Of a stretch of DNA of 32,000 bases, positions 7,401 through 24,066 are shown piece by piece; the first letter of the stretch is position 1, and every line of letters starts with the position of its first letter. The notes beneath the pieces were generated by a model. The model was not told the DNA's origin and made no database searches. It saw nothing but the letters and a program-made list of their open reading frames with translations. A program made the translations under genes and the position numbers. This stretch comes from Mycolicibacterium smegmatis (GTDB taxonomy: Bacteria; Actinomycetota; Actinomycetes; Mycobacteriales; Mycobacteriaceae): the NCBI RefSeq assembly GCF_001457595.1, contig NZ_LN831039.1:1380001-1412000 (forward strand), written 5' to 3'.

Positions 7401-10400
7401 GCCGTTCGAGGTGCCGAAATCCCTGGTGGCCAGCGCGGACCCGTCGATCTTGGACGCGGTCGACGAAGTGATGCGGGGGTTGCCGGAGAAGGTTGACCTG
7501 GCCCGGCCTCGCCGGGAGCACGCATGGGGTTTCATCGACTCCGTACCCGCCTCAGGTCTCGACGCGGCGGAGGTCTACACCGCGGCCGTGGAGTTCGACG
7601 CCGCTCTGGAGGACGTGCTGGAGGGCGGTCTGGCCCTCGACCAGCTCGCCAAAGCGCACAGCCCGAACGCGGTGGTCGCCTGGGCTCGGCTGGCAGCTGA
7701 ACCCCGGTTCCCGCTCGACGCCGTCGACAGCCTGCATGAGGCCGAGGGCCAGAACCAGCTCAACGGGATCGACCAGCTGTCAGCCAAGCTCGGTGCCACA
7801 CAACCGGACTGGTTGGCGACCGCCACGCCGGCGGCGATGGACCTCGACATCCCGGCGATCCACAAGTCGGCGGTCGAGGCGGACGAGTCGGGCTTCTTCG
7901 GCCGCAAGAAGCGTCGGCGCGCCGTGCGGGAGCAACTCGCCGATGTGTTGGCGGTCGACCCGTCGACGGTGAAGCTCAAGACACTGTCCACGCTGACCGC
8001 CGACATCGAGACGACGTACCGCGACGTGTCAGACCTTCGGGGCCGCGTCGCCAAACTGCCGACGCGACTGATCGACCCGTCCTGGAACCCGCTCGTCAGC
8101 GACGACGCCACCCGGCTGGCCGACGCGCTGGCCGCGGTGCGGCGCGTCGGAAAGGTCCTCTCGGAACATCCGGACGAGCCACGGATCAGCGCGATGCGCG
8201 CGTTCTACCGTGACACCGGCCAGGGTGCGTTGGCGCAGCCGTTGCAGCGGTTGGCGTCCGCGTGGCAGCGACTGACCGCGGTGACGGGTACTTCCGAGGA
8301 TGGCCAGCGGATGTGGGCCGGGGAGGGTTCGTTCCTTGAGCAGTGGTGGGCGACACGGGGCGACAGGAAACTTCAGACACCCGCCTCGGCGGAACGCTGG
8401 GTCGACCTGCTCACCCATGTTGAGCCGCTGCGCAAGGCCGGTATGGACCATGTCCGCGTCGACATCCTCAAGGGCATGGTGGTGCCCGAGGATGCCCCGT
8501 TGGCGTTCGACCACGGCGCGGCACGGGCCTCGGTCACCGAGCGTCTGGAGGCCAGCGCCCTCGGCGACTTCCACGTCACCGCCCACAACAAGACGATCCA
8601 GCGGTTCACCTCCAGCGCGAGCGCGATCCGCGAGGAGCTCCGCCGGGCCATCCCCGCAGAGTTGTTGGGCAGCCGCACGTTCGACGCCGCCGCTGACACC
8701 GGGCAGGTAGGTGGCTTGCGCCGTCAACTCGACCGCAAGCGTGGCGGCATGAGCGTGCGGGCACTGATGGACAACTTCGGTGAGCTGATCACCCAGATCC
8801 TGCCCTGCACGCTGATGAGCCCGGACTCGGTCGCACGGTTCTTTCCCGCACGCCCGGACATCTTCGACATCGTCGTGTTCGACGAGGCCTCGCAGATCCG
8901 GGTTGCCGACGCGATCGGCGCCATGGGACGCGCGAAATCGGTTGTCGTCGTGGGTGACAGCAAGCAGATGCCGCCGACGAGCTTCGCCGAGGCGAGCGCC
9001 ACGGTCGACGACGACGAGGACTACAACCCCGATGTGGTCGCCGACGAAGAGTCGATCCTCACTGAGTGCGTGCACGCGCAGGTCCCGCAGCAGTGGCTGT
9101 CGTGGCACTACCGCAGCCAGGACGAAGCCCTCATTGCGTTCAGCAACGTGCATTACTACGGCGGCCAGCTGGCGTCGTTCCCGGCGCCCCACGCCGGCAC
9201 CGCTGGGCACGGCATCTCGCTGGTGCGGGTCGACGGGCACTTCGAGCGGTCAGGTAAAGGAAAGACCCTGCGCACCAACCGTGTCGAGGCCGAACGCATC
9301 GTCGAGGACATCCGCCGCCGCTTCGCGGAATCACCCGACAGGGCGCCGTCGCTCGGTGTGATCACCTTCAACGCACAGCAGCGTGACCTGATCGAGAACA
9401 TGCTGCGTGATACCCGCGACGAGCGGCTGTTGGCAGCACTCGACGAACCCGATGGGCTTTTCGTCAAGAACCTGGAGAACGTGCAGGGGGACGAACGCGA
9501 CACCATCCTGTTCTCGGTGGCGTTCAGCAAGAAGGAAAACGGCGTTCTGCCGTTGAACTTCGGTCCGCTGTCACGACCAGGTGGGGAGCGGCGGCTCAAC
9601 GTGGCCGTCACCCGCGCGCGCCGGGAAGTGGTGCTCTATGCCAGCTTCGACCCCGCCGACCTGCGGGCAGAAGAAACCACACAGGTCGGGACCAAGCACT
9701 TGAAGGCATACCTGGAGCTCGCGGCGCGCGGTGTGGACACCATCATCGACGGCGGCAAGCGCCAGCCGGTGATCGACCGGCACCGTGACGACATCGCCGA
9801 AGCCCTGCGTAACGAAGGCTTCGTCGTCCGCACCGACGTCGGGTTGTCAGAGTTCCGCGTCGACTTGGTGATCGCCGATCCTGATGAGCCGGATCGCGCG
9901 CTTGTCGCGGTCTTGCTGGACGGCGCCGAGTGGTACCGCCGCAAGACTGTCGCCGACCGTGACGGACTGCCCATCGACGTCCTGTCGAATCTCATGCACT
10001 GGCCGTCTGTCGAACGCGTATGGATGCCGGAATGGCTGAACTACCGTGAGGCAACGCTCGAACGGCTTCGCCAAGCGGTCGACGACGCCAAGCAACGGTT
10101 GGCGCAGCCGGTGGAGAAACCGTCCGAGCCGGTCGAGACTCCCACCCTCGTGATTCCTCCGCCGGTTACTGGACCGGAGCACGAGCCCGCGACGATCGGG
10201 TCGCTGAAGTCGGCACCCACCGTGACGGCGCCGAAGCCCAAGCAGCACCCCAACATCCGGGCCTTCGAGGAGTGGTCGCCACGCATCGCCGGTGACAAGT
10301 CGGTGCTCGATGCGCTTCCGAGTCCGTGGGCCAGAAGCCAAGTGCTGACGGTGGCGCGCGAGATCATCGAGGTCGAGGCGCCGATTCACCGTGACCGGCT

Positions 10401-10803
10401 GGCGAAGCTTGTCGCAGGAGCGTTCGGGCTGGGCCGGGTCAACGATGATCGTCGCCGTTCAATTCAACGTGTGGTGCCGACCGAATACCGGCGCGACCGT
10501 GACGACTTCTATTGGGGCGCTGGCGTAAACCCCGACGAATGGTCACTCGTGCGGCAGCCTGAAGACGGGGGAAGCCGGCCTCTCGATGAGGTCAGCCTCA
10601 TCGAGATTGGCAACGCCATGTTGATCGTCGCTGAGCAGACCGGCGGTATCGAGCGCGAAGAGCTCAAGCGCGAGGCACTTGCGCTCTTCGGTGGTCGCCG
10701 CATCACCCAGGCGATCGGCGCTCGGCTGGACGACGCGCTGAAGCGTGCTGTCGACAGGCGAGTGTTGAAGTATTCGCCGGCGGGGTTGGTGGTGGTCGCC
10801 TAG
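4435..10803 (+). CDS. Hhe-like giant defence protein: Swt1-like HEPN + transglutaminase-like core + DUF4011 + Upf1/DNA2-like SF1 helicase + Vsr/DUF559-like nuclease + DUF3320-like tail
   Basis: 2122-aa uninterrupted ORF. GTG start after GAGGGGGAG. HEPN Rx4H motif RNKWAH (4731-4748). Cys/His motif GTCLDTTL...RGHAFLGYW. WKNALLDLSLRNRLINF (DUF4011-like). Walker A GPPGTGKSQT (~7018-7047). Helicase motifs VVFDEASQ, VVVGDSKQMPP, WHYRSQDE, QGDERD and VAVTRAR. C-terminal FRVDLVIADPD...VAVLLDG nuclease-like core. Confidence 0.85.
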   Translation: MINTGDHHALVGQALTVLARGLSPFVNHVLAKAVPPGTEWPELLRRKDAANGRGGGEYRSTDLAMMLRAMTERVGDVGWPFNRSMPRQAEIYAKELREVRNKWAHTGEFTAPEAYRAIDSAELLLRAIDAPEPAAALAQLKAAVSPLATGTPTNSETPVTTTTATKTAPHVLTPPRPPHPDAPRIDIAAIPDLSYAMAHCRIPVIDHITIDNTFGDLLGATIEIDVVSAEGSHGGPREVHADLSPGRPTTLRDVDLKLDPASMLTVDEQRPADIRVVVRDPAGTALAEAAHPVNVLAANQWKASPTQLALEMLAAYVQPNSTAVAALMPKVSDRLLATTGNSAIDGYQSENPDRVDAIARAVFEAMRACDIRYAEPPASWGDDGQKVRTPAEVLEGRLGTCLDTTLTMAAVLEQAGINTTIWVLRGHAFLGYWRTDSALSTVSTTEAVEVANQVDLGAIGLIETTMVTQSADGATFDDARAVPRIKYLSDGLGDVIGITDIRQARQARIHPLPSRAVDDQGNVVVTEYKPANGPVIMPYVATGTKAAAPQGAVPARVTQWKNALLDLSLRNRLINFTDRAGFRIEIPGPALARFEDAINAGDKITLMASDAVKSVDQARGIRFGRDLPEQERELLLADKHSAYIDITDASYQRGLRNLAYKARTIREETGANNLYLAFGMLSWHLNDRELRSPLILVPVSLSTSNRGQSYVLTIDDAGASTPNYCLVEKLRTALGLEIPGLANPDEDASGIDLAGTFNSVRHAIADAGLAFRVEDTVHLSILQFAKFPLWKDLDESWEALSRNPLVKHLIETPTSQFVDPVAPPEDVDLDELGASVPVPADSSQLRAVAEAVGGRTFVLEGPPGTGKSQTITNLLAHAMAAGRRVLFVAEKRAALDVVKKRLESVGLGELSLDLHDKSARPAAVRAQIKEALELRVTHDADLLRTKLQSAESSRRSLARYAERLHEMNAVGHSLYTARSRELAADPDVEPFEVPKSLVASADPSILDAVDEVMRGLPEKVDLARPRREHAWGFIDSVPASGLDAAEVYTAAVEFDAALEDVLEGGLALDQLAKAHSPNAVVAWARLAAEPRFPLDAVDSLHEAEGQNQLNGIDQLSAKLGATQPDWLATATPAAMDLDIPAIHKSAVEADESGFFGRKKRRRAVREQLADVLAVDPSTVKLKTLSTLTADIETTYRDVSDLRGRVAKLPTRLIDPSWNPLVSDDATRLADALAAVRRVGKVLSEHPDEPRISAMRAFYRDTGQGALAQPLQRLASAWQRLTAVTGTSEDGQRMWAGEGSFLEQWWATRGDRKLQTPASAERWVDLLTHVEPLRKAGMDHVRVDILKGMVVPEDAPLAFDHGAARASVTERLEASALGDFHVTAHNKTIQRFTSSASAIREELRRAIPAELLGSRTFDAAADTGQVGGLRRQLDRKRGGMSVRALMDNFGELITQILPCTLMSPDSVARFFPARPDIFDIVVFDEASQIRVADAIGAMGRAKSVVVVGDSKQMPPTSFAEASATVDDDEDYNPDVVADEESILTECVHAQVPQQWLSWHYRSQDEALIAFSNVHYYGGQLASFPAPHAGTAGHGISLVRVDGHFERSGKGKTLRTNRVEAERIVEDIRRRFAESPDRAPSLGVITFNAQQRDLIENMLRDTRDERLLAALDEPDGLFVKNLENVQGDERDTILFSVAFSKKENGVLPLNFGPLSRPGGERRLNVAVTRARREVVLYASFDPADLRAEETTQVGTKHLKAYLELAARGVDTIIDGGKRQPVIDRHRDDIAEALRNEGFVVRTDVGLSEFRVDLVIADPDEPDRALVAVLLDGAEWYRRKTVADRDGLPIDVLSNLMHWPSVERVWMPEWLNYREATLERLRQAVDDAKQRLAQPVEKPSEPVETPTLVIPPPVTGPEHEPATIGSLKSAPTVTAPKPKQHPNIRAFEEWSPRIAGDKSVLDALPSPWARSQVLTVAREIIEVEAPIHRDRLAKLVAGAFGLGRVNDDRRRSIQRVVPTEYRRDRDDFYWGAGVNPDEWSLVRQPEDGGSRPLDEVSLIEIGNAMLIVAEQTGGIEREELKREALALFGGRRITQAIGARLDDALKRAVDRRVLKYSPAGLVVVA

Positions 10804-11174
10804 AAGGTTGCGCGTGCCGGCTGTTCGCACCTCGTCGCTCCGTTGAAGGGGATATTGTTCGGTGGTCGATGATGGTGCCGTCGATGACCGCTGCATGCGG
10901 TTCAACGCTAACGCATTCCGTGTACCACCGCCACGACGGAAGCGGACAAATGTTGGCGTAGCCAGGATTTGACGGGTTCACGTGCGCCAGTAGTTCGGAG
11001 ACGCCACAACTCAAAGACGCCAAGCTTTATGGCCGCCCGGAGAGATCGCCGGGACCTGTACCACCCCGGCGGAGACCAAGGGAGACACTCCTGACGATCA
11101 AGATCTGGCAGAAGGCGTTGATTCCTTTGCTTGAGTGATTTTGGTCGGTCTCTCGAAGGACGCTTCTATGTTTG

Positions 11175-12286
11175 TCAATGGGCGACTGAGGTGTTGAGCA
11201 CCCGGAAGAGTTCGCGGGCGGTGTAGCGCTTGAGTGCGCGGCGGATCTCGGCGTCGGATCTGCCTTTCGCCCGGCTGGCAGCAATGCAGGCGTGGGTGCG
11301 GGGGACATCCGCCACCGCGTCAACACGATATCGTGCAGCGCCCGATTGAGATGGCGGTCGCCGCCGCGATTGAGTCGGTGCCGGTGGGTGCGACCGCTGC
11401 TGGCGGGTACCGGGCTGACTCCGGCAAGGGCCGCGAAGGCGGCTTCGTGACGGCGACCGTGATGCGACCAGGACACGAGCAACTGGCCGCCGCTGACCGG
11501 GCCGACGCCGAGTCGGTCCTGCAAGCCAGGGGCGAATGCCTCGACCAGTTCGGCCAGCTGGCGCTTGTTATCGGCGAGGCGCGGGCGCCGTCGCGGATCG
11601 CCAATGCCAACCGGCGTGCTTTGGCGCAACGTACGCGGGCTTCGGTCGAGGCGCCGCGGTCCCCGCGCCGGCGCGCGATGACTCCGAGGTTGTGTCCGAC
11701 ATCGAGCAACGGGCGAGCGCGCGATCGTCATCGTCGCCGGTGAACAGCAGCGCCCGAAGCCTGTTGATCTGCGCGGTGCGCGAGATGGTCATGTCGCTGC
11801 GCGCGCTAAGAAGTATGCGGATAGCTTCACGATCACCGCCGCGGGCAATGGCTTTCGTTCGTCATCCATGCGCAACACCTCAAGCGCAGCAAGCCGGGCG
11901 TCGACGGGATCGGACTTGCCGCGACGGCGGTGACGCCGACGCGGGCACTCGACCTCGACCACGACCAGACCGGCGTTGTTGAGTGCGCGCGCCAGACCAA
12001 TTCCGTAACTACGAGTTCCCTCCAGCCCGACGATAACGCCAGGCCCGGGCGCATGCTCGGCGATCCACTCCAACGCGCCAATGAATCCCGACGCGTTGTT
12101 CTCGATAGTCAGTGTCGCGATCGTTGTGCCGTTGGGTGCGGTCATCTCCAATGCGTGAGTGTCTCGGTGGGCGTCGCCACCGATGACAGCGCCCACCGTT
12201 TCTGCCACCATTGCCACGGGCCTTGCGCTCCTGTCCAGTGCACGGATCAGGGCGGCACCGGCCCGGGAGGATCCGCTCGGCGGCAT
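11175..12286 (-). pseudogene. IS110-family transposase, multiply frameshifted
   Basis: N-terminal DEDD-type region (GGDAHRDTHA...GLEGTRSYG...GKSDPVDA) in ORF 11789-12286. The middle (TAQINRLRALL; LDVGHNLGVIARRR) and C-terminal parts (GVGPVSGGQLL...SSGRTHRHRLNRGGDRHLNRALH; AKGRSDAEIRRALKRYTARELFRVL-stop at ~11175) lie in other frames. At least 4 frame changes are needed. Confidence 0.75.
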
Positions 12287-12501
12287 ATCTGTGATGGGTC
12301 ACGCGCCACGACAGCAGCACGGACAGGCTTCTGATCAGGCCAGAGGTGGGGCGGGCCGGTGCCGATGCCAGCGACGACGGGTCCTTCGCACGGCACACCA
12401 ACCCGGCGGCCAAATCACGCGTGAGTCAGTCCCTGGCATCGACACCGATCCTGACAGCGACTCAAACCGGAATTTGTCAAGGTGTTTGAGTCCAGTGGGT
12501 G

Positions 12502-13515
12502 TTAAGCGGCTTCCGTTTCGGTCTCCTGTTCGGCCGGTTTGGGTGGGTTGATCGCCGCGGATTCAGGTAGGTCGATGACCTTGGGTGCGGTGTCGCGGCC
12601 GAATCGGCGTGGGTGGCGCGCCCTGGCGTCGGCGAGCACGGCTCGGCGCTGGGTGTCTTTCCCGCCGGCGAGGCCGTAGAACACATCGGCGGGTGTGTGC
12701 AGCCCGATGCCGCTGTGGCGGTGTTCATGGTTGTACCACTGCACGAATCGGTCCATGAAATCCCTCGCGTGATGGATGGATTCGAAGCGTTCCGGGAACG
12801 CCGGCGCATACTTCAAGGTCTTGAACCAGGACTCGCTGTAGGGGTTGTCGTTGGATACCTTGGGCCGCGAATGCGAGCGGATGACTCCCAGATCCGAGAG
12901 CAGTCCGGCGACGGTGTTGCTGGTCATCGAGGTGCCCCGATCAGCGTGCACGACGTGTGGGATGCCGTAGGTGCCGAAGATCTGTTCCATCATCTCCTTG
13001 GCCAGCTGGCCGCATTCGCGGGCGTGCACATGGACCCCGACGATGTAACGCGAGTAAATGTCGATCATCACGTAGGCGTCGTAGTAGACCCCTTTGACCG
13101 GGCCGGCCAGTTTGGTGATGTCCCACGAATACACCTGCCGCGGCGCGGTGGCCACCAGTTCCGGGCAGACCGCTTTGCGGTGCCGGGCCAGCCGACGGCG
13201 CTCCTTGACCAGCTTGTTGGCATTGAGGACGCGGTACATCGTCGACACCGAACACAGGTAGCTGCCTTCATCGAGCAACGTGGCCCACACCTGCATCGGC
13301 GCGGCATCGACGAACCGGGCACTGTTGAGCACCTCAACCACCCGGGCGCATTCGGACTCGGTGAGCTTGTTGACCGGGACCGGTCGTGGTGCCCGATCGG
13401 CAGGCGCCGGCGCGGGTTTGGCGCGTCGAGTGGCCGTCGAGCGGTGCATGCCGGTCACCTCCGCGGCCTTGCGGGTCGGAATCTGGATATCCCGCAGATC
13501 GTTGTAGGCATCCAT
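12502..13515 (-). CDS. IS3-family transposase OrfB (DDE integrase core), expressed as an OrfAB fusion
   Basis: 337 aa from the first Met. The frame is open upstream to the slippery site. DDE-region motifs YSWDITKL, VHADRGTSMTS and SNDNPYSESWFKTLKY. Confidence 0.85.
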   Translation of the reverse strand: MDAYNDLRDIQIPTRKAAEVTGMHRSTATRRAKPAPAPADRAPRPVPVNKLTESECARVVEVLNSARFVDAAPMQVWATLLDEGSYLCSVSTMYRVLNANKLVKERRRLARHRKAVCPELVATAPRQVYSWDITKLAGPVKGVYYDAYVMIDIYSRYIVGVHVHARECGQLAKEMMEQIFGTYGIPHVVHADRGTSMTSNTVAGLLSDLGVIRSHSRPKVSNDNPYSESWFKTLKYAPAFPERFESIHHARDFMDRFVQWYNHEHRHSGIGLHTPADVFYGLAGGKDTQRRAVLADARARHPRRFGRDTAPKVIDLPESAAINPPKPAEQETETEAA

Positions 13516-13943
13516 CAGCGCTTGGTCGGCGGCGTGTCGGTGTCCGCGCTCTCGGAGAGAGACTCCAAGAGCGCGTGTGCTTTTCCCATGATCCCCAGGG
13601 CAGCCTCGGTGGTCGCCAGCCGATTATTGGCCTGGGCGAGTTCCTTTTTCAGGCGGGCGATCTCGGCCTGCTCGCGGGTGAGTTTACCGACCTTCTCCCC
13701 AGGTGCCTTGCCTTCCAACACCCCAGCATCGCGTTGTTTGCGCCACTCGGCGATCTGCGAGGAATACAACCCCTCACCGCGCAGGTACGCCCCACCATCG
13801 TTGGTCGTACAGGCCTGCTCATAGGCATCCAGGTGGGCCAGCTTCTGCGCCGGAGAAATCGAGCGCCGCCGGCGCGGGCCATCAGATCGCGGTGAAGGTG
13901 CCACCGCTCCAGTCTCGCGCACAGCAGCCATCGTCGTCGTCAT
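13515..13943 (-). CDS. IS3-family transposase OrfA (copy 2)
   Basis: Identical to 107-535. Confidence 0.85.
   Translation of the reverse strand: MTTTMAAVRETGAVAPSPRSDGPRRRRSISPAQKLAHLDAYEQACTTNDGGAYLRGEGLYSSQIAEWRKQRDAGVLEGKAPGEKVGKLTREQAEIARLKKELAQANNRLATTEAALGIMGKAHALLESLSESADTDTPPTKR
13581..13587 (-). promoter_or_regulatory. -1 programmed ribosomal frameshift heptamer G_GGA_AAA
   Basis: Minus strand reads atc atg gga aaa gca. The -1 frame (ggg aaa agc ...) is open and runs into the OrfB Met (MDAYNDL). The same heptamer is present in copy 1 at 173-179. Confidence 0.6.
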
Positions 13944-14555
13944 GGTTCAGGTGATTCCGTTCTCGCCCCGAGATCAAGCCAAGTTGCCAAGTTGCTAAGT
14001 ACCAGTGGACTCAACTCACCCTGACACCCAGGGAACAGCCGAATCGCTACAACACACACTCACAAATCACGCGATGACCTTCATTCATTCGGCTACGACA
14101 CGCCGGTACTGCTAATGAGGTCCGACTCGTACACCACTCTGCTGGACGCAACCCGTCAACGTGCAGGAAAGGAGTCGCATGAGGCGTGTCTTCGCTTTCC
14201 GCCGCTGCGACGATCGCCTCCATCTCGCGGCCGCCTTCGAGAACCGTGAAAGGGCAACCGGCGCATGGTCCGCGGTCATGAAGTCCCGCAGGCGTCTGGC
14301 CACAGCCATTGATTGCGAGACCTGACCGCCCCTGGCGAATAACGGCAGTCACAACACGTCCTCTGTACATTTCCTGGCCTGCACAGTTCGTGTATTCGTG
14401 GCGGGTGGCAAGAAATCGAACGGATGTCGGCAGTGGGCGTTATTCTCTCGGAAGGTTGCTGGAGTTGAATGATGGGAATCGGCCGCGCGCAAGAGGACGT
14501 ATCAAGTGATCAATGAAAGCGTTGTTGTACCGGGTAGGGGAGACGGAACGCATCA

Positions 14556-17500
14556 ATGATGGGCCTTGATCCCGTGTCGGACAGGCGAACCGAGCCGACA
14601 TTTGGGTACCACCCAGACGCCGACCGGGTGGATGTTCCACTTGACCTAGCTGAGTTTAGTCGAGCGGTCGTGCTGGACCGTCCCGTGGCAAACCTCAGAG
14701 ACCGGGTCGCGGACTGCCGGATCCTCTGGCAGGCAGAAGCGGGCTTGCCCGAGGGCGTGTATTGGTTCGAGGGCATCGAGTCCCCGATGCTGATGCAGGT
14801 GGCTGCCGGTGCACCGCCCGGTGACTCAGCGGTTGTTCCAGTTGCGTCGCTGCCTGACGACCATCCACTGATGAACGCTTGGGGGTGGGCAGAGGAACTG
14901 TGGGAGCGGGCCGTGCCCGTGCCTGCGCCCAAGTTCGCTATCAACGAGGTCGCAGTGACCCATCCGGGTGACAGGGATGTGACGATCAGGGACCGCCGGT
15001 TCTTCAGCGACGAGTGGTCGTACTCGGTCACCATGGACGGGCGGCGCATCGATGTGATCGAGTCGAAGTTGCGAGCTCGCCCTCAGCTCGATGATCCTCG
15101 CGCATGGGTGTTGAAGGAGCCTACGCCTGCTGGTCGGTTTGGTGCCACACTTACCCGCGCAAAGCTGCTGGGTAAGTTCGCGAATACCCTCTTCTCGTTC
15201 CGTGCTACGCGCACCACGTTTCGTCCCTACCAGTTCAAACCGGTGTTAAAGCTACTACAGACTGGCAAGGCGCGATTGCTCATCGCCGACGAGGTCGGTC
15301 TGGGCAAGACGATCGAAGCGGGTTTGATATGGACTGAGTTGGAAGCGCGGCAGGAAGCGGATCGTGTTCTGGTCGTCTGCCCGTCGAGCTTGTTGGCCAA
15401 GTGGAAAGAGGAGATGGCGGACAGGTTCGGCTTCGAGCTGACGGAACTCGATGCCAGTGGCTTGGCGCAGTTTTACGACAGGCATCTGCAGAACCGTCTC
15501 CCACGACGGCAGGCGTACATCTGCAGTATGGAACGCCTACGTACGTGGGGCGGACTGGATGATTTCAGAGATGTCCCCCCTGAGTTCGACCTTGTCATAG
15601 TTGACGAAGCGCATTCGATGCGAAATTCAGACACCAAGAGCTATGCCTTGGGCACACAACTAGACGAGTGGGCGGACAACCTGGTATTCCTGACTGCAAC
15701 GCCCATCAACCTGCACCAAACGGATCTTCTCAATCTGTTGGAGCTGTTGGCTCCTGGAGACTATGGGGACATCCGCGATCTCGAAATGCGTCTGGAACCC
15801 AACCGCATCACCAACCGCGTTGTGGCTCGACTCAGCGAGAAGGGGGTCACCGGCCACGAACTTCTTGGCGAATTGGAACAGTTGTCCGCGACACCATATG
15901 GCCGAGCACTGACACAAAGGCCGGATTTCAATCTCTTGCGTGATGTCCTGGGGAAGACTGAACTTACGCCGCGCGACATTGTCGACGCCAAACGTACCTT
16001 ATCGGAACTGAACACACTGTCCACTGTTATCACACGCACAAAGAAGGTCGAAGTCGACGACCGAAAGGCGAAGCGCAAGGAGGACCGCAGGAATATTCAG
16101 TGGACTGATGCAGAAGAAAGGTTCTACGCCGAATACCTCGAGTGGTGTCGTACGCGAGCGGCGGAACTGGGGCGGCCGCTGTACTTCGCGATGCAGATGC
16201 CATTGCGGCTCGCGAGTGCCTGTCTGCCGATGGCGCGAAAGGCCGTCCTGGAACCTGACGCATTCGGTCAGATTTCCGACTCGGACTCGGGCGAGGTTTC
16301 CAGTCGGCTCGAGCCACACGAGGCACTTGTCGATGCGGCTCTCGCGCTCCCCGAAGGTGTCGACACCAAGTTCGACGTGCTTCGTGAGGTGCTATCCAGT
16401 CTACACTCGGGCAACCGTCAAGCGTTGATCTTCACGTTCTCGGTCCCCACCCTGGCCTACTTGAGTGATCGACTCAGCGAGGATTATCGAGTTGCGGTAA
16501 TGCACGGTGGAGTAAAGCGCGAGTCCCGTATCAAGATCATGGCCGACTTCCGTTCGGGTCAGTACGACTTTGTGCTGGCAAACCGCGTTGCCAGTGAGGG
16601 TCTTGACTTCGAATTCTGTTCCGCAGTAGTCAACTATGACCTTCCCTGGAACCCTATGGAAATTGAGCAGCGCATAGGCCGGATCGATCGGATTGGGCAG
16701 CAAGACGAGGCAATCGTTGTCGTCAACTTTGTCAACGAGAGCACGATTGATGAGCGGATCCTCAGTCGTCTCCTCGACCGCATCGAGATCTTCGAATCCT
16801 CCATCGGCGCGCTCGAACCCATCGTCACGGTGCACGCACGGGAGATTCTTCAGGCCGGGTTCGACTTCACGCTCACGCGCTGCGAGCGTGAACAGAAGGT
16901 CCACGAGATGTTGACGGCTCTTGAAGAGCAGCGCGCCGGCCTGGAGGACGTCGCCGACGCTGCCAGCGCACTTCTGGTGAGCAACGATGTCGAAGTGGCC
17001 GGGCTGGAAGACGATTTGGTACGCACAGGCCAGTACATCGGGCAGCAAGAATTGGCGTCACTACTTGACGACTGGGCACGAATCGACGGTGCGCCTGGGA
17101 TCAAACGGATCGGTGACGGGAACACCGTCGAACTGCTTGGAAATCCGGCGATGGCTTCTCGCGTCAACGACCTGGTGAAGAAGCACCAGCGGACCCGCTC
17201 GGAGACGAGACTCATTTCCGCCAGCCTGCGCAACGAGTTACCCATACCGCTCGTTCTTGACCAGGAGACCGCTCGAACGGGTGGCGGAACCCTGCTCACC
17301 GCGACAAATCCTCTTGTCATGGCTGCCGCGTCAGTGCCGGGGCATCGTCAAGCTCGATTCGCTTCTCTGAGGATTGTCACCGGAGAGGATGATGTCGTAC
17401 CCGGTATCTACATTGTGGTACTGGCGACGGCGATTTCAGCCGCGCGGGGTGGAGATGAGATTTGGGGGAGCGCCGTAGACCAACAGGGGCGGAATGCGGG

Positions 17501-17924
17501 CGAGTGGCCGGTGAACGTACTACTTGCAGCATTGGCGGAGGGCAACCTCGCCGATGCACCGATGCCGGATGTCAACAAACTTGACCGCCTCGCCGAACGA
17601 GCGCTGAACCAGCTGCACTTTAGGCATGCGCGGGAGCAGAAGCGACGCGACGATGAGTTTGAGTCTCTGCGAGACGCCAAGCTCATTAGTCTGCGGGCGC
17701 AGCACCTTCGCAGGAGAGAAGCAATCGAGAATCGGATCGCTACTGCGCAGAGCCGGGGCCGTGGTGAGCGCGCGATCGATCTATTCCGCAGTCAGCTACG
17801 GCGGGCGGAGGAGCGCTACGAAGCCCTGGTGGCTGATCTGTCGACCCAGGCGCAACCTGAGATTCGACTAGAGCCCCTGGGCGCCTGCGTCATGAATGTC
17901 GGCGTCGCTGGAGAGTCTGCATGA
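14556..17924 (+). CDS. SNF2-family (HepA/RapA-type, COG0553-like) ATPase with unassigned N- and C-terminal regions
   Basis: 1122 aa. Motifs FRPYQFKPVLKLL...LLIADEVGLGKTIEAG (I), LVIVDEAHSMRN (II), FLTATPI (III). Helicase-C lobe ...ANRVASEGLDFEFCSAVVNYDLPWNPMEIEQRIGRIDRIGQ. About 215 aa upstream and about 400 aa downstream of the core carry no motif I recognise. Coiled-coil-like Arg/Glu-rich tail. Confidence 0.85.
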   Translation: MMGLDPVSDRRTEPTFGYHPDADRVDVPLDLAEFSRAVVLDRPVANLRDRVADCRILWQAEAGLPEGVYWFEGIESPMLMQVAAGAPPGDSAVVPVASLPDDHPLMNAWGWAEELWERAVPVPAPKFAINEVAVTHPGDRDVTIRDRRFFSDEWSYSVTMDGRRIDVIESKLRARPQLDDPRAWVLKEPTPAGRFGATLTRAKLLGKFANTLFSFRATRTTFRPYQFKPVLKLLQTGKARLLIADEVGLGKTIEAGLIWTELEARQEADRVLVVCPSSLLAKWKEEMADRFGFELTELDASGLAQFYDRHLQNRLPRRQAYICSMERLRTWGGLDDFRDVPPEFDLVIVDEAHSMRNSDTKSYALGTQLDEWADNLVFLTATPINLHQTDLLNLLELLAPGDYGDIRDLEMRLEPNRITNRVVARLSEKGVTGHELLGELEQLSATPYGRALTQRPDFNLLRDVLGKTELTPRDIVDAKRTLSELNTLSTVITRTKKVEVDDRKAKRKEDRRNIQWTDAEERFYAEYLEWCRTRAAELGRPLYFAMQMPLRLASACLPMARKAVLEPDAFGQISDSDSGEVSSRLEPHEALVDAALALPEGVDTKFDVLREVLSSLHSGNRQALIFTFSVPTLAYLSDRLSEDYRVAVMHGGVKRESRIKIMADFRSGQYDFVLANRVASEGLDFEFCSAVVNYDLPWNPMEIEQRIGRIDRIGQQDEAIVVVNFVNESTIDERILSRLLDRIEIFESSIGALEPIVTVHAREILQAGFDFTLTRCEREQKVHEMLTALEEQRAGLEDVADAASALLVSNDVEVAGLEDDLVRTGQYIGQQELASLLDDWARIDGAPGIKRIGDGNTVELLGNPAMASRVNDLVKKHQRTRSETRLISASLRNELPIPLVLDQETARTGGGTLLTATNPLVMAAASVPGHRQARFASLRIVTGEDDVVPGIYIVVLATAISAARGGDEIWGSAVDQQGRNAGEWPVNVLLAALAEGNLADAPMPDVNKLDRLAERALNQLHFRHAREQKRRDDEFESLRDAKLISLRAQHLRRREAIENRIATAQSRGRGERAIDLFRSQLRRAEERYEALVADLSTQAQPEIRLEPLGACVMNVGVAGESA

Positions 17925-19879
17925 AGGGTGGGGGAGACAAAGCGCTGGAACTCGAGGATGAGCGGACAGCGCAGAAGAAGTACAGGAACATCCTGCGCGA
18001 ACGTGCCTCAACACCACCTGTCTTCGACGGGCCCGCGAACGCGAATTGGACTCGTAGTGGTGTGCCCAAAGCTCCCAAAGCGGGTGACGGCGAACTCATT
18101 GGCCGCGTAGCGCTAGTGCGGTCGGATGACGAAGTGCTGGACGGAGGCGCCGACTTCTACATCGGTGAAACACACGCGAAGATCAACGATGTCAATGTCT
18201 TTGGGTGGTCGAACCCAATCGCGTGCACCTTCTTCCGAGGATCGGACCATCACTACCTGTGCGAACAGGTCGCCGTAGTCCGGTCATTTCATGTCCGCGA
18301 CCGCCATATCGTCGACTTCAGTGACGAGGTGGTGCGCACTGATGCTCCTGCGAAGCCGTTCAGGAAACAGGGACTCTCTGTCCCTGCTCCGCCGCGACCG
18401 CCGAAGGTGCCCCGCCCCCGTCCTGCCCACCCCGATGCAAAGCAGTCGGAAACCGTCGAGGACGAAATCCGGCACCCGGCTATCGCAGAATCGTCGACAC
18501 CGACCCAGCCTGGTCCCAGTGACCAGTCGGCTGAGTTGCCTCCCGTTCGGGCGGAGGAGTTGCTTCGACAGCGCCTCAGTGCGCCGCGGACGAGAAGCCT
18601 TGCGCCTGTGCTCAGTACGCTGCAGCCTGACCAGTATGACCTGGTAACCATCCCCGCCATGGACAGCGTGATCATCGAAGGCCAACCTGGTACCGGCAAG
18701 ACCATCGTGGCATCACACAGGGCCGCGTACCTGGTCAACGACGAGACACCACCTGAGAACACGCTGGATGGAACAGTACTTGTCGTCGGCCCAACGGAGG
18801 GCTACTCCCGTCACGTGCGTGACGTGATCGATCGTTTGGCTGGACCCACCGATCGGATCAAGGTGATGTCGTTGCCCGAACTGATAAACCACATAATCGG
18901 AGTGGCCCAGCCGGCACGTTCTCTTTACTCTCAGACTTGGCAGGATGTCGACTGGCGGCTGGTGCGGTTCGCGCGCCTGGCGCTTAGGAGATTAAAGGCC
19001 GCGAACGAGTGGACACCGACGCCGGAACGCGTCTACGAATACGTTCGGAGAAATGCGGCAGACATCGCCTCGGAGGGCGAGTGGTCTCGCTATCTTCTGC
19101 ACCTGCCACCGTATAAGGAGGCGATTAAGGATGGGATTCACGGTCCACTCGTGGCCTTCATCCACTGGGAGGTCTCAAAGCCTCGCGATCTGGTCCAGGT
19201 CGAGCATGTCATCGTCGATGAAGCCCAGGACGTGACCTCCCTTGAGTGGCTGTTGTTGGACGAGATCAACGAAGCGGATGCCTGGACGATTCTCGGAGAC
19301 TTGAATCAGCGGCGGTCCGACCATACGCTCACCAGCTGGTCGCAAGTCCTGGAGGTCATCGCGATAGACCCGGATACGCCGATCCATCGGATGAAGCGGG
19401 GGTATCGGTCGACCAAGCCTATTCTTGAGTTCGGGAATCGGTTGCTCCCCCGTGATCAGCGTAAGTCCTACGCGTTTCAGCAGATTGGTCCGGAGCCGCG
19501 GGTGCTCAGGGTGTCAGGCCGGGATCTGCCAGGGGCGACTGTCGATGAAGTTGAGCGTCTACTCGGTGATTACGAGAAGGGAACGGTGGCTGTGATCTGC
19601 ACGTCGCCAGACCAGATTACCAAGGTGTTGCGCACCCGAGGGTGGGCTAGGTCGACGGACGATGCCGTTGCGTGGGAACGGACGCCGCGCCGAGTGACGG
19701 TCAGCGTGATTGATGAAGCCCGCGGATTGGAGTTCGATGCCGTGGTTGTCGTCGAGCCGTCAGACTTTCAGGGCAACCTCGGGCGCCAAGGGCCGCTGTA
19801 TACCGCATTGACGCGCGCGAACCGAGAGCTCGTGGTCATTCACTCGAAATCTTTGCCTGAACGGTTGCGGAAGCGCTGA
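17921..19879 (+). CDS. HelD/UvrD-like superfamily-1 helicase (AAA_19/UvrD_C-type)
   Basis: ATG overlaps the SNF2 stop (ATGA), with GGAGAG 8 nt upstream. N-terminal segment FYIGETH...VFGWSNPIACTFFRG resembles the HelD/helicase IV N-terminus. Pro-rich linker PAPPRPPKVPRPRPAHP. Walker A GQPGTGKT, motif II VIVDEAQD, then ILGDLNQ, GYRST and ARGLEFDAVVVV...LYTALTRANREL. Confidence 0.8.
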   Translation: MKGGGDKALELEDERTAQKKYRNILRERASTPPVFDGPANANWTRSGVPKAPKAGDGELIGRVALVRSDDEVLDGGADFYIGETHAKINDVNVFGWSNPIACTFFRGSDHHYLCEQVAVVRSFHVRDRHIVDFSDEVVRTDAPAKPFRKQGLSVPAPPRPPKVPRPRPAHPDAKQSETVEDEIRHPAIAESSTPTQPGPSDQSAELPPVRAEELLRQRLSAPRTRSLAPVLSTLQPDQYDLVTIPAMDSVIIEGQPGTGKTIVASHRAAYLVNDETPPENTLDGTVLVVGPTEGYSRHVRDVIDRLAGPTDRIKVMSLPELINHIIGVAQPARSLYSQTWQDVDWRLVRFARLALRRLKAANEWTPTPERVYEYVRRNAADIASEGEWSRYLLHLPPYKEAIKDGIHGPLVAFIHWEVSKPRDLVQVEHVIVDEAQDVTSLEWLLLDEINEADAWTILGDLNQRRSDHTLTSWSQVLEVIAIDPDTPIHRMKRGYRSTKPILEFGNRLLPRDQRKSYAFQQIGPEPRVLRVSGRDLPGATVDEVERLLGDYEKGTVAVICTSPDQITKVLRTRGWARSTDDAVAWERTPRRVTVSVIDEARGLEFDAVVVVEPSDFQGNLGRQGPLYTALTRANRELVVIHSKSLPERLRKR

Positions 19880-20591: not shown

Positions 20592-22886
20592 TTGGGTTCA
20601 GAGGAGGCGGACTTGACCGAAGCTCAGGTCGGAACGTTCGCGCGAAAAGCAGCGGTGGCCGTCGAAGCGGTCGGTCGGCAGCTCATCGAGGTGGGATTTG
20701 GTAGTGATGGTTCACTTCTGACTCCGGGTAAACCCGTGTGGACGACGGCGAACTTGGACGCACTTGCGCGGGATTACGTCGACAAGCCCGACACCGGGGG
20801 CGGCGGGTTCTTCGACAAGCTGAGCCACCAACTCGCCGGCGCCTCACCCGCGGTGGTGCAACTGTTCGCGGAGCTGCTGATCCTGAACGTGCTGCCGATC
20901 ATCAACGTCGGTGGCCCGCTCAAGGTAAAGCAGGTTCGGAGTGTCCTCGAGATGAGCAGCGAGCCGGTGGCCCTGCCGAGTGACGTCGAAGCCGCGCTAC
21001 TCGGTGGCGGAGTATTCCACGGTGGCCAAGCTTTCACCAGCTATCGGTGGGCGCAGCTCGCCTACCTCATCGAACTTGCGCGCCACCTCAAATCCCTTCC
21101 CGAGCAACGGCGGACTGAAGCGCTTGCTGACCCGCTGGTCTTCCGCGGCGAGGTTGGTGCGGTGCCGACCGGCCAGGGAGCGCAGCGGCAGTCCCTGTTG
21201 TACCTGGCTTTCCCGCACTTTTTCCTACCCGTTGTGAAAACCGAGCACCGCACGGCGCTGCGTGATGCATTCGCCGACGACTACCTCACCGATCCCTCGG
21301 GTGACGTGGACATCGACCTGGCGCGCATCTACGGCGCCATCACCGAGGCCGAGGGTGGGCACGTCGATCTATACGCCGAACCGTGGATTGACCGCTGGCA
21401 GAAGCCGTCGTCGCCGGGTCCCGAACCCACGGATAAGGTGCGACACGCGTGGAAAGTGCACGGCACCAACGTCAAAGGCCAGGACATGGTGCCGACCTGG
21501 CGGGCCAAGCAGTCGGTGTCCCTAGCGGCCAGCCTGCTGCGGCCCATTGACCCCGACGTAACCCGGGAGGAACTGAAGGCCTTCGTCGACGAGGACTACC
21601 GGTCGTCGGGTTATGCGGCTCGCCAGGAGAAGTTCGATGAGTTCTACACGTTCCTCAAGCGGATGCATCCCGACGACCTGGTGGTGACCGTCAGCCAGGG
21701 AATGGTGCACTTCGGGACCGTCACCGGGCCGGCCGAGTTCACCCCGAGCAGTGACGGGAGGTCGAACCTGCGTCGCTCGGTCAGATGGTTTGAGAATCCC
21801 TGCCCGTGGCCCGACATTCCCAGCGACATCGCTGCCCGTCTCAGTGCGCAGGGCGAGGTCCTCGACCTCAGTCAGCACCTGGAACAACTGCTGGCCCTGG
21901 CCGAACACAGACCGCAGCGACCCGGGCCAGCCGAGGCCCACCTGCCCAACGCCACCCAGGAGTTGGCCGACCGAATCCACGTCGGGTTGGACTGGCTGCA
22001 GGACTGCGTCGATCTGCTGCGGGAGCGCCGCCAGATCATCTTCTACGGTCCACCCGGAACCGGAAAGACCTACATCGCACAACAACTCGCCTGGCACGTC
22101 ACCGACAAGCCGAACGTCAAACTCGTCCAGTTCCACCCGGCCTACTCCTACGAGGACTTCTTCGAGGGCTTCCGACCGCAGGGCGAGGCGGGTGGGCAGA
22201 TCGGGTTCACCCTGAAGGCCGGCCCCCTGCGCTCGCTGGTCGACAAGGCCGCGCAGAATCCCGAAGCGGCCTACGTGCTCATCATCGACGAGATCAACCG
22301 CGGCAATCTGCCGAAGATCTTCGGCGAGTTGTACTTCCTGCTGGAGTACCGCGACCAGGCCATCGACCTAATGTACTCCTCCGACAGCGCCGAACCGTTC
22401 TCGCTGCCCAAGAACATCTTCGTGATCGGCACCATGAACACCGCCGACCGCTCCATTGCCCTGGTCGACGCCGCCCTGCGTCGGCGCTTCGCCTTCCTCC
22501 CGTTACACCCTTCGGAGGTGCCCACCCGCGGCATCCTGCGCCGCTGGCTAATAGCCAACGGATACGACACAAGGCTGGCCAACCTGCACGACGAACTCAA
22601 CTCCCGGATCAGCGACACCGACTTCAAGATCGGCCCTTCGTACTTCATGCGGAAGAAGATCACGACCGACCCCACCGGCAAGGCCCTAGAACTCATGTGG
22701 CGCACCGACATTCTGCCGCTGCTCGAGGAACACCACTTCGGGGACCGCAACATCGACGTCCCCGGCCGATACGGGCTAGCCGTGCTGCGCAAGAGCCTGG
22801 CCGCCAAGTCTGCGGTCGCGATCGACGACGAGTTGGCCGTACTTAATTCCGCTGACGACAATGCCGACACCGCTGATCCTCACTGA
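20592..22886 (+). CDS. mcrB: McrB-family AAA+ GTPase with a long (~470 aa) unassigned N-terminal region
   Basis: C-terminal module IIFYGPPGTGKTYIA...VQFHPAYSYEDFFEGFRP...VLIIDEINRGNLPKIFGELYFLLEYR...FVIGTMNTADRSIALVDAALRRRF (NTAD = McrB NxxD motif). The real start may be TTG at 20613, 6 nt after GAGGAGG. Confidence 0.85.
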   Translation: MGSEEADLTEAQVGTFARKAAVAVEAVGRQLIEVGFGSDGSLLTPGKPVWTTANLDALARDYVDKPDTGGGGFFDKLSHQLAGASPAVVQLFAELLILNVLPIINVGGPLKVKQVRSVLEMSSEPVALPSDVEAALLGGGVFHGGQAFTSYRWAQLAYLIELARHLKSLPEQRRTEALADPLVFRGEVGAVPTGQGAQRQSLLYLAFPHFFLPVVKTEHRTALRDAFADDYLTDPSGDVDIDLARIYGAITEAEGGHVDLYAEPWIDRWQKPSSPGPEPTDKVRHAWKVHGTNVKGQDMVPTWRAKQSVSLAASLLRPIDPDVTREELKAFVDEDYRSSGYAARQEKFDEFYTFLKRMHPDDLVVTVSQGMVHFGTVTGPAEFTPSSDGRSNLRRSVRWFENPCPWPDIPSDIAARLSAQGEVLDLSQHLEQLLALAEHRPQRPGPAEAHLPNATQELADRIHVGLDWLQDCVDLLRERRQIIFYGPPGTGKTYIAQQLAWHVTDKPNVKLVQFHPAYSYEDFFEGFRPQGEAGGQIGFTLKAGPLRSLVDKAAQNPEAAYVLIIDEINRGNLPKIFGELYFLLEYRDQAIDLMYSSDSAEPFSLPKNIFVIGTMNTADRSIALVDAALRRRFAFLPLHPSEVPTRGILRRWLIANGYDTRLANLHDELNSRISDTDFKIGPSYFMRKKITTDPTGKALELMWRTDILPLLEEHHFGDRNIDVPGRYGLAVLRKSLAAKSAVAIDDELAVLNSADDNADTADPH

Positions 22887-24063
22887 GGGAGGCCCAGCCC
22901 AGACCGTCGCACTCACCGGTGCGGAGTACCGCGCACTCAACGATCTGGGCATCGCCACCGTCACCCCGACGCTCGACGACGGACACTTCGACATCGTCGC
23001 CGCACGCAAGGTGGGCGCCGTCACCGTCGGGAACCACCAGATCATCGTGCGCCCGAAGATCACCAACCTGAATCGGGTGCTGTTCATGCTGGGCTACGCC
23101 CGAAACCCGCAGATCTGGCGCGACGAACCCATCCGGGTGGAGGCCGCCGACGAACTGCTGCCCGCGGTCGCGGAGGCATTCTCCCGCATCGCCAGCCACG
23201 CTGTGGAACAGGGCCTGCTACAGGGATACCGGACCATCACCGACGCACTCCCGGTGCTGCGCGGACGGGTCTTGGCCGGCGAGCAGATGAGCCGGCGCTA
23301 CGGACTACCGGTGCCCATCGCCGTCCAGTACGACGACTTCACCGTCGACATCGCCGAGAACCAATTGCTGGCGATGGCAACGCTGCGCCTGCTGACCGTG
23401 CCACGGATCAGCGACCCAGCACGACGATCACTGCAGCGGCTGCGCCGCACGCTGGGAGAGGTCTCGGTGCCACCGCCGGGAACGCCGACACCGCGGTGGC
23501 ACCCGAGTCGTCTCAACGTCCGCTACCACGCCGCACTGCGGCTTGCCGAGATCATTCTGGCGGCCGAATCCTTCGAACACCGCATCGGTAACGTGACGGT
23601 CACCGGATACATGTTCGACATGTGGAAGATCTTCGAAGATTTCGTCACCACCGCACTGTCGGAGTCGTTGAACCGCCTCGGCTGGCGATGCCAGCCGCAG
23701 GCGCCGTTGTATCTGGACGAGCAACGCCGCGTCGGCATGCAGCCCGACCTGCTGTGCCGGTACGACGACTCGAGGGTCGCGGTGGTCGATGCAAAGTACA
23801 AAGCGGAGCGGCCCGAGGGGTTCCCGAATGCCGACCTCTACCAGATGTTGGCCTATTGCACCGTGCTCAGCCTGCCTGAAGGTCATCTGATCTACGCCAA
23901 AGGGAACGAGAAAGGCAGGGTGCACACTGTGCAGCGGTCTGGTGTCACGATCCATTGTCGGGCACTGGATTTAGGGTTGGATCCGGCTGCGTTGTTGCGG
24001 CAGGTCGACCAGCTGGCCGTCCGAATAGCTAAGACAGGTGCGCTCGCAGATAGGAAGGAATAG
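22861..24063 (+). CDS. mcrC: McrC-family PD-(D/E)xK nuclease subunit
   Basis: Overlaps mcrB by 26 nt. Nuclease motif MQPDLLCRY...VAVVDAKYK...ADLYQMLAY. Confidence 0.8.
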   Translation: MPTPLILTEGGPAQTVALTGAEYRALNDLGIATVTPTLDDGHFDIVAARKVGAVTVGNHQIIVRPKITNLNRVLFMLGYARNPQIWRDEPIRVEAADELLPAVAEAFSRIASHAVEQGLLQGYRTITDALPVLRGRVLAGEQMSRRYGLPVPIAVQYDDFTVDIAENQLLAMATLRLLTVPRISDPARRSLQRLRRTLGEVSVPPPGTPTPRWHPSRLNVRYHAALRLAEIILAAESFEHRIGNVTVTGYMFDMWKIFEDFVTTALSESLNRLGWRCQPQAPLYLDEQRRVGMQPDLLCRYDDSRVAVVDAKYKAERPEGFPNADLYQMLAYCTVLSLPEGHLIYAKGNEKGRVHTVQRSGVTIHCRALDLGLDPAALLRQVDQLAVRIAKTGALADRKE

Positions 24064-24066
24064 GAA

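Follow-up and report, generated by a model that had tools for sequence, protein, structure and literature searches.

The window analysed here is a 32,000-nucleotide (nt) stretch of the Mycolicibacterium smegmatis genome (assembly GCF_001457595.1, contig NZ_LN831039.1, positions 1,380,001 to 1,412,000 of the forward strand), and all coordinates below are positions within it unless another locus is named. Near its centre two adjacent genes encode motor ATPases, a Swi2/Snf2 (SNF2) protein of 1122 amino acids (aa; gene A) and a superfamily 1 (SF1) protein of 652 aa (gene B). The A-B pair is an autonomous, horizontally mobile two-gene operon of Actinomycetota, translationally coupled and co-inherited. 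A preliminary description, made from the sequence alone, had proposed a candidate undescribed two-helicase defence module, and this candidacy is supported by the analysis, which came out in its favour on each of the refuting conditions it covered. From its genomic context the pair is probably a defence module, directed against phages or mobile elements, that can do without a dedicated methylase or nuclease. Taken as a whole, with remodelling of RNA polymerase as the leading mechanism of this mobile two-motor operon and candidate defence module, our favoured explanation is a tentative one.

An alignment scan for B across 185,579 species genomes returned 26 true B-orthologue loci (L001–L026) and 53 loci with distant HelD-like genes. 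Three of the 26 begin at a contig end, leaving 23 with upstream DNA; at 22 of these an A orthologue ends where B starts, and the sole exception (L022) holds a C-terminal fragment of B only, without A. None of the 53 HelD-like genes has an A-like gene upstream. Exact-protein look-up reached eight further loci, three from A and five from B, all carrying the pair. Overall, of the 31 independent related loci whose upstream DNA is available, 30 have A directly upstream of B; the adjacency noticed in the window is thus a conserved one. It holds in the deep branch, where B identity is ~31–38 % (Microthrixaceae, a marine metagenome-assembled genome (MAG) labelled Acidobacteria, and another MAG) and where the A proteins are full-length orthologues of 44–47 % identity.

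The pair is kept as a unit at 31–76 % identity across Actinomycetes and Acidimicrobiia, and its distribution in the genome scans is patchy. Clustering of open reading frames (ORFs) across the loci left only A and B in common, with no other conserved gene. A 4-nt (A/G)TGA overlap joins the two genes in 21 of 27 distinct tabulated loci, the window included, and the catalytic ATPase motifs are intact in every orthologue (29/29 A, 34/34 B). The identities of A and B to the window proteins covary (r = 0.97 over 33 rows including duplicate loci), which is weak evidence since shared descent explains it. Plasmid and phage collections yielded no B orthologue, only distant HelR-like matches.

A second form of the arrangement occurs in Micromonospora chersina (L095), where a 1012-aa B-like paralogue has an A-like SNF2 gene directly upstream. 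Directly upstream of this paralogous pair, on the same strand, is a sigma-70 family gene (regions 2 and 4; 2837–3997 of L095); as a single case this neighbour is suggestive of a link to transcription. The M. chersina genome also holds a standard pair (P0061). Damaged copies of the pair were seen elsewhere: a premature in-frame stop close to the C-terminal end of A (L006/L080), a split B (L024), short, N-terminally shortened A proteins (L026, L094) and a short-called B (L090). These fit the turnover typical of island genes, and some may be assembly or gene-calling artefacts.

The neighbours of the pair vary by locus but are mostly defence genes. They include full-length PglW, PDC-S68, PDC-S37, BrxHI, DruE-like proteins, type I methylases, MADS, and BREX types 1 and 2, together with McrBC, GmrSD, restriction-modification, AbiE, SIR2, PLD and NERD-UvrD genes. 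By comparison, 98 neighbours picked in a similar way around canonical HelD/HelR-like genes gave almost only generic kinase models, from two proteins.

Some neighbours recur. PDC-S37 lies directly upstream of A, overlapping or abutting it, in L006 and L007. The PDC-S37 of the window is 66 % identical to the copy abutting A in L006 (Mycobacterium sp. 1274756.6), which shows that PDC-S37, A and B have moved as a group in that sub-lineage; L007 has a different PDC-S37. Directly downstream of B in L001–L004 and L088 is PDC-S68, a RecD-like SF1 protein of ~1250 aa (these loci belong to one mycobacterial sub-clade), joined to B by a 4-nt overlap or a 6–8 bp gap in L002, L003 and L088. In L008, L009 and L015 a DruE/YprA-like giant helicase (1700–2200 aa) follows B, and no large gene able to encode a PglX-like methylase was found near these three loci. 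The PDC-S68 and DruE-like loci are either three-gene variants or a hotspot where giant helicases land. The BREX genes in L006/L080 and L094 form separate neighbouring clusters. McrBC, which adjoins the pair in the window, does so again in Microbispora rosea (L086; 50 % identical, divergent orientation) and not in most other loci. Its inclusion in the same system was rejected because McrBC adjoins the pair nowhere but in the window lineage and, divergently, in M. rosea; it is judged to be an independent system.

Protein A carries the motifs DEVGLGKT (Walker A), DEAH and QRIGRIDRIGQ (motif VI) and the Pfam domains SNF2-rel_dom and Helicase_C. The PADLOC DrmD model PDLC02623 matches aa 199–1069 (E 1.3e-123) and is followed by DpdE, RapA, BrxHI/II (E 1e-57 to 4e-50) and HmaA. 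NCBIfam DISARM_DrmD aligns with aa 220–1102 at 328 bits against a cut-off of 610, and NCBIfam RapA (PRK04914) reaches 171.5 bits against 576, in two stretches within the ATPase core only. By sequence, A groups with the defence SNF2 proteins (nearest DrmD, DpdE and BrxHII) rather than with RapA, and it is closer to the known defence helicases DrmD, BrxHII and ArmA than the preliminary description assumed.

Fold comparison brings RapA to the fore. The AlphaFold (AF2) model of A, built from 25 orthologues with a mean predicted local distance difference test (pLDDT) of 69.8, has full-length Escherichia coli RapA as its best solved Foldseek match (6bog_A, E 1.1e-30, 1140 aligned columns). Further fold matches are other RapA entries, including RNA polymerase complexes. 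The RapA set spans E 1e-30 to 1e-20 over 1114–1140 columns; its best entry stands 15 orders of magnitude ahead of other SNF2 proteins, chromatin remodellers matching at ~1e-15 only. Template-modelling scores against RapA are low (0.2–0.3), the domains being arranged differently and the model only moderate. RapA was also best in a profile search of PDB sequences (E 5e-42).

In layout A agrees with BrxHII and RapA, in which a Tudor-type N-terminus precedes the SNF2 core and is followed, after a degenerate restriction endonuclease (REase)-like domain, by an alpha+beta domain into which a coiled coil is inserted (PMC12839542). Sequence and model together indicate that A is a full-length protein of the DrmD/BrxHII/RapA type, not an SNF2 core within unplaced sequence. 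The preliminary description had been unable to place either flank of the core. This no longer holds for the C-terminal ~400 aa, which DrmD profiles cover; it stands for the N-terminal ~200 aa, which lie outside all DrmD and RapA sequence profiles (DrmD matches start at aa 199–220) and have no Pfam match even at E 10. The N-terminal domain is family-specific and has many invariant residues among orthologues. No nuclease motif is apparent in the C-terminal region, which in isolation gave no useful Pfam match at E up to 10. Given its intact catalytic motifs, A is predicted to be an active ATPase.

Protein B shows the motifs FYIGETH, GWSNPIACTFF, GQPGTGKT and VDEAQD, and a proline-rich stretch at ~aa 150–205. 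All A and B motifs quoted in the preliminary description were found again, as were the HelD-like N-terminal segment and the proline-rich linker. The NCBIfam scores of B are low against the cut-offs (bits/cut-off: HelR_2 138/1100; HelD_MYCSM 123/1051; HelR 118/750; HelD_BACSU 108/419). PADLOC gave weak GajB matches only (best E 7e-9), against E 4e-40 for HelR in NCBIfam. A PDB profile search from 20 B orthologues returned M. smegmatis HelD (E 3.7e-37), Bacillus subtilis HelD (E 8e-34) and PcrA/UvrD (1e-7), and the top Foldseek matches of the AlphaFold model (pLDDT 66.8; core good, N-terminus poor) are HelD chains in RNA polymerase complexes. Alignment by hhalign of the B family with a HelD/HelR-like set from other Actinomycetota, whose members score 350–410 bits on HelR/HelD models, gave a probability of 100 % (E 1.3e-43), with B aa 43–643 on positions 58–721. 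These matches place B in the HelD superfamily, but not as an equivalog of HelD or HelR.

B retains domain 2A and the two halves of domain 1A, and its motif III (GDLNQRRSD) matches that of HelD (GDLAQRRS). Canonical UvrD motif III carries base-stacking aromatic residues and differs from that of B. B is too short to accommodate the 1B/2B DNA-binding domains found in true UvrD-type helicases. The helical insert in domain 1A stands where M. smegmatis HelD has residues 261–503 (243 aa, comprising the clamp-opening domain and the primary-channel loop; domain limits from PMC7749160), and no acidic primary-channel loop is visible in the B sequence.

Homology of the N-terminal globular (NG) domain is shown by hhalign, which places B aa 43–140 on the HelD-like equivalent, and by hidden Markov model (HMM) alignment of B 83–137 with HelD 93–144. 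The W-x-x-P-x-A-x-x-F motif of B aligns with HelD residues ~100–112, at the end of the NG-loop, which in HelD contacts the beta-prime funnel (PMC7749160). In the region where HelD has its antiparallel N-terminal coiled coil (NCC), the arm that enters the secondary channel, B has one predicted helix (aa 4–29) followed by a low-confidence Pro/Gly-rich stretch that hhalign leaves unaligned. Most of the linker, as far as ~aa 205, is an insertion relative to HelD. The first 160 aa are family-specific, with 138 matches among 1.84 billion representatives, nearly all in 640–730-aa proteins with the domain N-terminal. The isolated N-terminus and insert gave no useful Pfam match at E up to 10, and B has no RelE domain; Pfam scans detected no nuclease, methylase or toxin domain in A or B. 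With its catalytic motifs intact, B is predicted to be an active NTPase. Longer proteins of the B family also exist: P0003 (1100 aa), which covers all of B and hits many additional P-loop families, P0293 (1120 aa, with HEAT-repeat Pfam hits) and P0330 (1016 aa). These may be fusions or duplications.

No named system consists of this pair, as the preliminary description had held: PADLOC-DB 2.0 (including HEC and PDC) has no specific model for B and matches A to generic SNF2 defence families only, and literature searches found no description of an SNF2 and HelD-like pair. Scanning of the window (Pfam and PADLOC on ten candidate ORFs of 234–2122 aa, Pfam alone on ten more) found no DrmA/B/C, DUF1998/MZB, PLD, methyltransferase, YprA, PglX/PglZ/BrxC or GajA, which agrees with the earlier statement that DISARM- and BREX-type partners (methylase, DUF1998, PLD) are missing there.

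The nearest defence relatives of A are DrmD of DISARM class 1, BrxHII of BREX type 3 and ArmA of ARMADA, with which it shares the SNF2 core, the C-terminal alpha+beta/coiled-coil layout and residence in islands. A differs from them in its longer, family-specific N-terminal domain (~175 aa) and in its coupled partner, which is HelD-like and not one of their defining genes (DrmA/B/C and DrmMI in DISARM; PglX/PglZ/BrxC in BREX type 3; YprA and a PglX-like methylase in ARMADA). DISARM class 1 was rejected because the core genes DrmA (helicase), DrmB (DUF1998) and DrmC (PLD) and the adenine methyltransferase DrmMI are not in the window, and BREX type 3 because PglZ, PglX and BrxC are not there either. 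As to DrmD itself, the strong PADLOC match of A and its DISARM_DrmD score below the cut-off point in different directions.

ARMADA type II comprises ArmA (RapA-like SNF2), ArmB (PglX-like methylase), ArmC (YprA helicase) and ArmD (GajB-like UvrD helicase), all four essential; it is non-abortive, acts directly and is abundant in Actinomycetota (PMC12458937). The pair resembles it in joining a RapA-like SNF2 protein (of ArmA-type architecture, with no ArmA-specific model) to a UvrD-superfamily ATPase and, in L008, L009 and L015 only, in having a YprA/DruE-like helicase after B. However, two genes are conserved rather than four, they are adjacent and overlapping, there is no methylase, and B lacks RelE and is weakly GajB-like. 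ARMADA type II was rejected since neither ArmB nor ArmC is in the window and the N-terminus of B aligns to the HelD NG domain, not to a GajB/ArmD-like one. Gabija (GajB), Hachiman and Nhi-type systems are likewise built round an SF1/SF2 motor, but pair it with a nuclease (GajA, HamA or fused). Gabija was rejected on the weak GajB matches of B and the lack of a GajA-like gene in the window.

Among housekeeping relatives, B shares with M. smegmatis HelD, B. subtilis HelD and Streptomyces venezuelae HelR the NG domain, a split 1A with a helical insert, 2A, motif III and the lack of room for 1B/2B. It scores about a tenth of their cut-offs, however, has an insert of 120 rather than 243 aa, no primary-channel loop and a reduced coiled-coil arm, adds a proline-rich linker of 50–70 aa, is coupled to an SNF2 gene and sits in defence islands. 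A and E. coli RapA, its best solved match over the whole length, share an N-terminal beta-barrel, the SNF2 core and the C-terminal alpha+beta region; sequence likeness nevertheless does not extend beyond the ATPase core. RapA has a housekeeping role in Proteobacteria, while A belongs to islands and is scattered patchily among actinobacteria. Orthology to core-genome RapA or HelD was rejected on NCBIfam scores far below cut-offs, patchy distribution and defence-rich context set against the HelD control, which upholds the preliminary description on this point. The pair is thus an unnamed candidate among the helicase-based defence modules with a RapA-like SNF2 protein.

Of the mechanisms considered, the largest single share of probability falls to one in which A and B form one complex using ATP to remodel RNA polymerase rather than cut DNA; this is possible, though short of probable. 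All HelD-family proteins characterised so far bind RNA polymerase, and none has helicase activity or DNA-binding domains (PMC7749160 and the HelR paper). An RNA polymerase target is favoured because of this binding, because B keeps the docking domain and HelD motifs, and because the likeness to RapA spans the whole of A, whose N-terminal domain is enlarged and conserved. B would dock through its NG domain at the rim of the RNA polymerase secondary channel, as HelD does, and A, RapA-like, would supply the clamp-opening or translocase force lost from the truncated insert of B. Acting together, they could remove transcription complexes from invading DNA or hold them fast there, or could release RNA polymerase from a block set up by the phage, and in each case the phage programme would be aborted. 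The more specific idea that the pair is the first defence built solely from RapA and HelD derivatives, protecting the cell with no nuclease, methylase or toxin by physically evicting or jamming polymerase on invading DNA, or by prising a phage-encoded inhibitor off the host enzyme as HelR does with rifamycin, is unlikely.

Several points weigh against the favoured explanation. The defence role is argued solely from genomic context, and in L089 and L090 housekeeping genes occupy one flank, L090 having no recognisable defence gene within 10 kb. B is without most of the clamp-opening domain and without the acidic primary-channel loop, and its N-terminal coiled coil is one predicted helix; it is with these parts that HelD rids RNA polymerase of nucleic acids (PMC7749160). 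By sequence A is nearest to DrmD, DpdE and BrxHII, and since DrmD, BrxHII and ArmA share the RapA architecture and work in DNA-modification-based systems (PMC12839542, PMC12458937), RapA-likeness is not specific evidence for RNA polymerase binding. The quality of both models is mediocre (pLDDT 67 and 70, from shallow alignments), and the N-terminus of B is poorly modelled. No means of self/non-self discrimination is apparent in A or B. Finally, the pair abuts giant helicase-nuclease genes in operon-like fashion in several loci and so may not act alone. The earlier suggestion that the pair could act on transcription complexes stands at the level of homology and architecture only.

The sequence affinities of A also suit a DNA-directed two-helicase defence, with the pair as a reduced relative of DISARM class 1, BREX type 3 or ARMADA, which is a somewhat doubtful alternative. 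A would translocate on double-stranded invader DNA, as is presumed for DrmD, ArmA and BrxHII, and B would be a UvrD-family translocase like ArmD or GajB, with replication or packaging blocked or host nucleases finishing the work. The best sequence matches of A (DrmD at E 1e-123, BrxHI/II, HmaA and DpdE) speak for this, as does ARMADA type II, in which a RapA-like SNF2 protein and a UvrD-family helicase act directly without aborting the cell (PMC12458937); where a DruE/YprA-like helicase follows B, three of four ARMADA-like roles are present. ARMADA needs all four of its genes, however (PMC12458937), whereas the window and most loci have no adjoining methylase or YprA. B, moreover, is HelD-like and not GajB-like by its HelR and GajB scores, has no RelE domain, carries the HelD-type motif III and has no space for 1B/2B, and neither protein has a detected nuclease domain. 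A nuclease would come from outside if the pair were an accessory module, inactive alone, that assists or regulates a variable neighbouring effector (PDC-S37/Hhe-like, PDC-S68 or DruE-like; here the HEPN/REase protein at 4435–10803). The position of PDC-S37 directly before A in L006 and L007 (~850 bp away in the window lineage before the IS inserted) and that of PDC-S68 or DruE-like genes after B fit such an arrangement. Yet these effectors come from at least three unrelated families, each a PADLOC single-gene candidate system, and none adjoins the pair in L086, L087, L089, L090, L093 or L094; conservation of A and B only is the pattern expected from co-location in islands. An accessory role is decidedly unlikely.

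A function outside defence is improbable, although for both proteins those relatives that have been characterised recycle or protect RNA polymerase. The pair would then be a transcription-maintenance or drug-tolerance module, HelR-like, rescuing RNA polymerase from stalling or from natural-product inhibitors of soil actinomycetes. The HelR paper calls most HelD-like diversity unexplored and raises the possibility that other inhibitors of RNA polymerase are countered by some members; the sigma-70 family gene beside the paralogous pair in L095 and the housekeeping flanks of L089 and L090 fit as well. Against this, the pair occurs repeatedly among restriction, BREX, McrBC, GmrSD and Abi genes, unlike canonical HelD/HelR-like genes, A groups by sequence with defence SNF2 proteins and not RapA, and no palindrome like the rifamycin-associated element was seen upstream (a crude test). 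That the pair is merely a decaying remnant of a larger DISARM- or ARMADA-like system, without function of its own, is highly improbable: decay is seen in single loci (the stop in A of L006/L080, the disrupted B of L024, the B fragment without A in L022, the short-called B of L090), but remnants are not kept as a unit at 31–76 % identity with ATPase motifs intact and translational coupling preserved.

In the window itself, both ORFs and the ATGA overlap given in the preliminary description were confirmed (Table 1), and a GGAGAG Shine-Dalgarno-like element precedes the start of gene B. The order of Hhe-like gene, insertion sequence (IS) and McrBC that it reported around the operon was also confirmed, with two refinements: the Hhe-like protein is better described as PDC-S37 (PADLOC E 4e-283, ahead of Hhe at E 5e-119; SF1 part AAA_11/AAA_12), and the IS is recent.

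Table 1. Features of the A-B operon and its surroundings (positions in the 32,000-nt window)
Feature	Position	Strand	Basis
Gene A, RapA/DrmD/BrxHII-type Swi2/Snf2 ATPase, 1122 aa, ATG start	14556–17924	+	ORF, Pfam, PADLOC, NCBIfam, PDB fold match
A, N-terminal beta-rich domain (aa 12–175), two beta-barrel-like halves around one helix	14589–15080	+	AF2 pLDDT 80–90, strand pattern
A, Swi2/Snf2 ATPase core (aa ~220–750)	15213–16805	+	Pfam; motifs invariant in orthologue alignment
A, C-terminal alpha+beta domains (aa 830–1116), long coiled-coil hairpin (aa 1009–1096) before last strand	17043–17903	+	AF2, DrmD profiles, RapA alignment
ATGA stop/start overlap of A and B (translational coupling)	17921–17924	+	
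Gene B, HelD-superfamily SF1 NTPase, 652 aa, ATG start	17921–19879	+	ORF, NCBIfam, PDB profile, Foldseek, hhalign
B, N-terminal domain (aa 1–150), one helix (aa 4–29), then four-strand NG-like domain with FYIGE and W-x-x-P-I-A-x-x-F-F-R	17921–18370	+	hhalign, HMM alignment; AF2 low confidence here
B, proline-rich linker (aa 151–224), predicted disordered	18371–18592	+	pLDDT <50; hhalign gap; variable in alignment
B, helical insert in domain 1A (aa 304–424, ~120 aa)	18830–19192	+	AF2, HMM alignment, hhalign; no Pfam match
Native region upstream of operon, presumed promoter; starts at IS right edge	14066–14555	+	
Composite IS insertion, IS110-type and IS3-type transposase ORFs, 2905 bp	11161–14065		Transposase_20, rve domains
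HEPN_Swt1-DUF4011-SF1 helicase-MTES_1575 REase-DUF3320 protein, 2122 aa, PDC-S37/Hhe-like; context, possible partner	4435–10803	+	Pfam, PADLOC
McrB-like AAA_5 GTPase (764 aa) and McrC (400 aa); context	20592–24063	+	Pfam

The 2905-bp IS block, whose IS3-type element consists of an OrfA-like ORF and rve, is not present in the near-identical metagenome contigs L082, L083 and L084, where 11160 is joined directly to 14066. It is a recent insertion between the PDC-S37-like gene and A, and the ancestral spacing of these two genes was thus ~850 bp. A repeat search over the IS region recognised no clean terminal repeats. Between the right edge of the IS and gene A lie 490 bp, and the insertion may therefore affect operon expression. 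The region between them is 97 % identical to the sequence upstream of A in L082–L084. A promoter scan found no sigma-70 consensus upstream of the operon, candidates from a terminator scan around it were at or below chance, and a palindrome scan upstream of gene A found none, including, on a crude test, none like the rifamycin-associated element.

The GC content is 0.57–0.61 over 14–21 kb against 0.63–0.69 in the preceding 10 kb; elsewhere in the window it also falls to ~0.60. No tRNA that could mark an integration site is found anywhere in the window. Downstream of the operon, the McrB-like protein has a long N-terminal extension with AAA_5 at aa 482–633, and a 235-aa ORF without family match is tightly linked after McrC (module 20592–24774, plus strand); this ORF is also present in L082. 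Further on, a minus-strand gene for an ankyrin-repeat protein (25253–25792) overlaps one for a fusion of ADP-ribosylglycohydrolase and dual-specificity phosphatase (25785–27284), the start of which is overlapped by a plus-strand NUDIX/NrtR-type regulator gene (27275–27964); 25253–27964 may be an NAD/ADP-ribose-related module at the island edge. To the left of the island are an IS30-type transposase (HTH_38 and rve) and a second rve fragment, at 1007–2988 (minus strand) and 3884–4249 (plus strand). The window also encodes a DUF732 protein, of a family typical of mycobacteria, in keeping with a source related to Mycobacterium or Mycolicibacterium.

New candidate defence systems are common; what is unusual here is the obligate pairing of derivatives of two RNA-polymerase-recycling motor families without an effector enzyme. 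If the pair protects alone, it would amount to a minimal defence made from two motor ATPases, free of nuclease and methylase. It would then add a new design to the DISARM/BREX/ARMADA group of RapA-like helicase systems and bring the HelD family, whose roles known so far are to our knowledge limited to transcription recycling and rifamycin resistance, into phage and plasmid conflicts. A two-protein pair is also far easier to reconstitute than systems of four to six genes, and would offer a handle on the unexplained role of RapA-like SNF2 proteins in DISARM, BREX type 3 and ARMADA. In environmental and clinical mycobacteria, the pair may be a barrier to mycobacteriophages.

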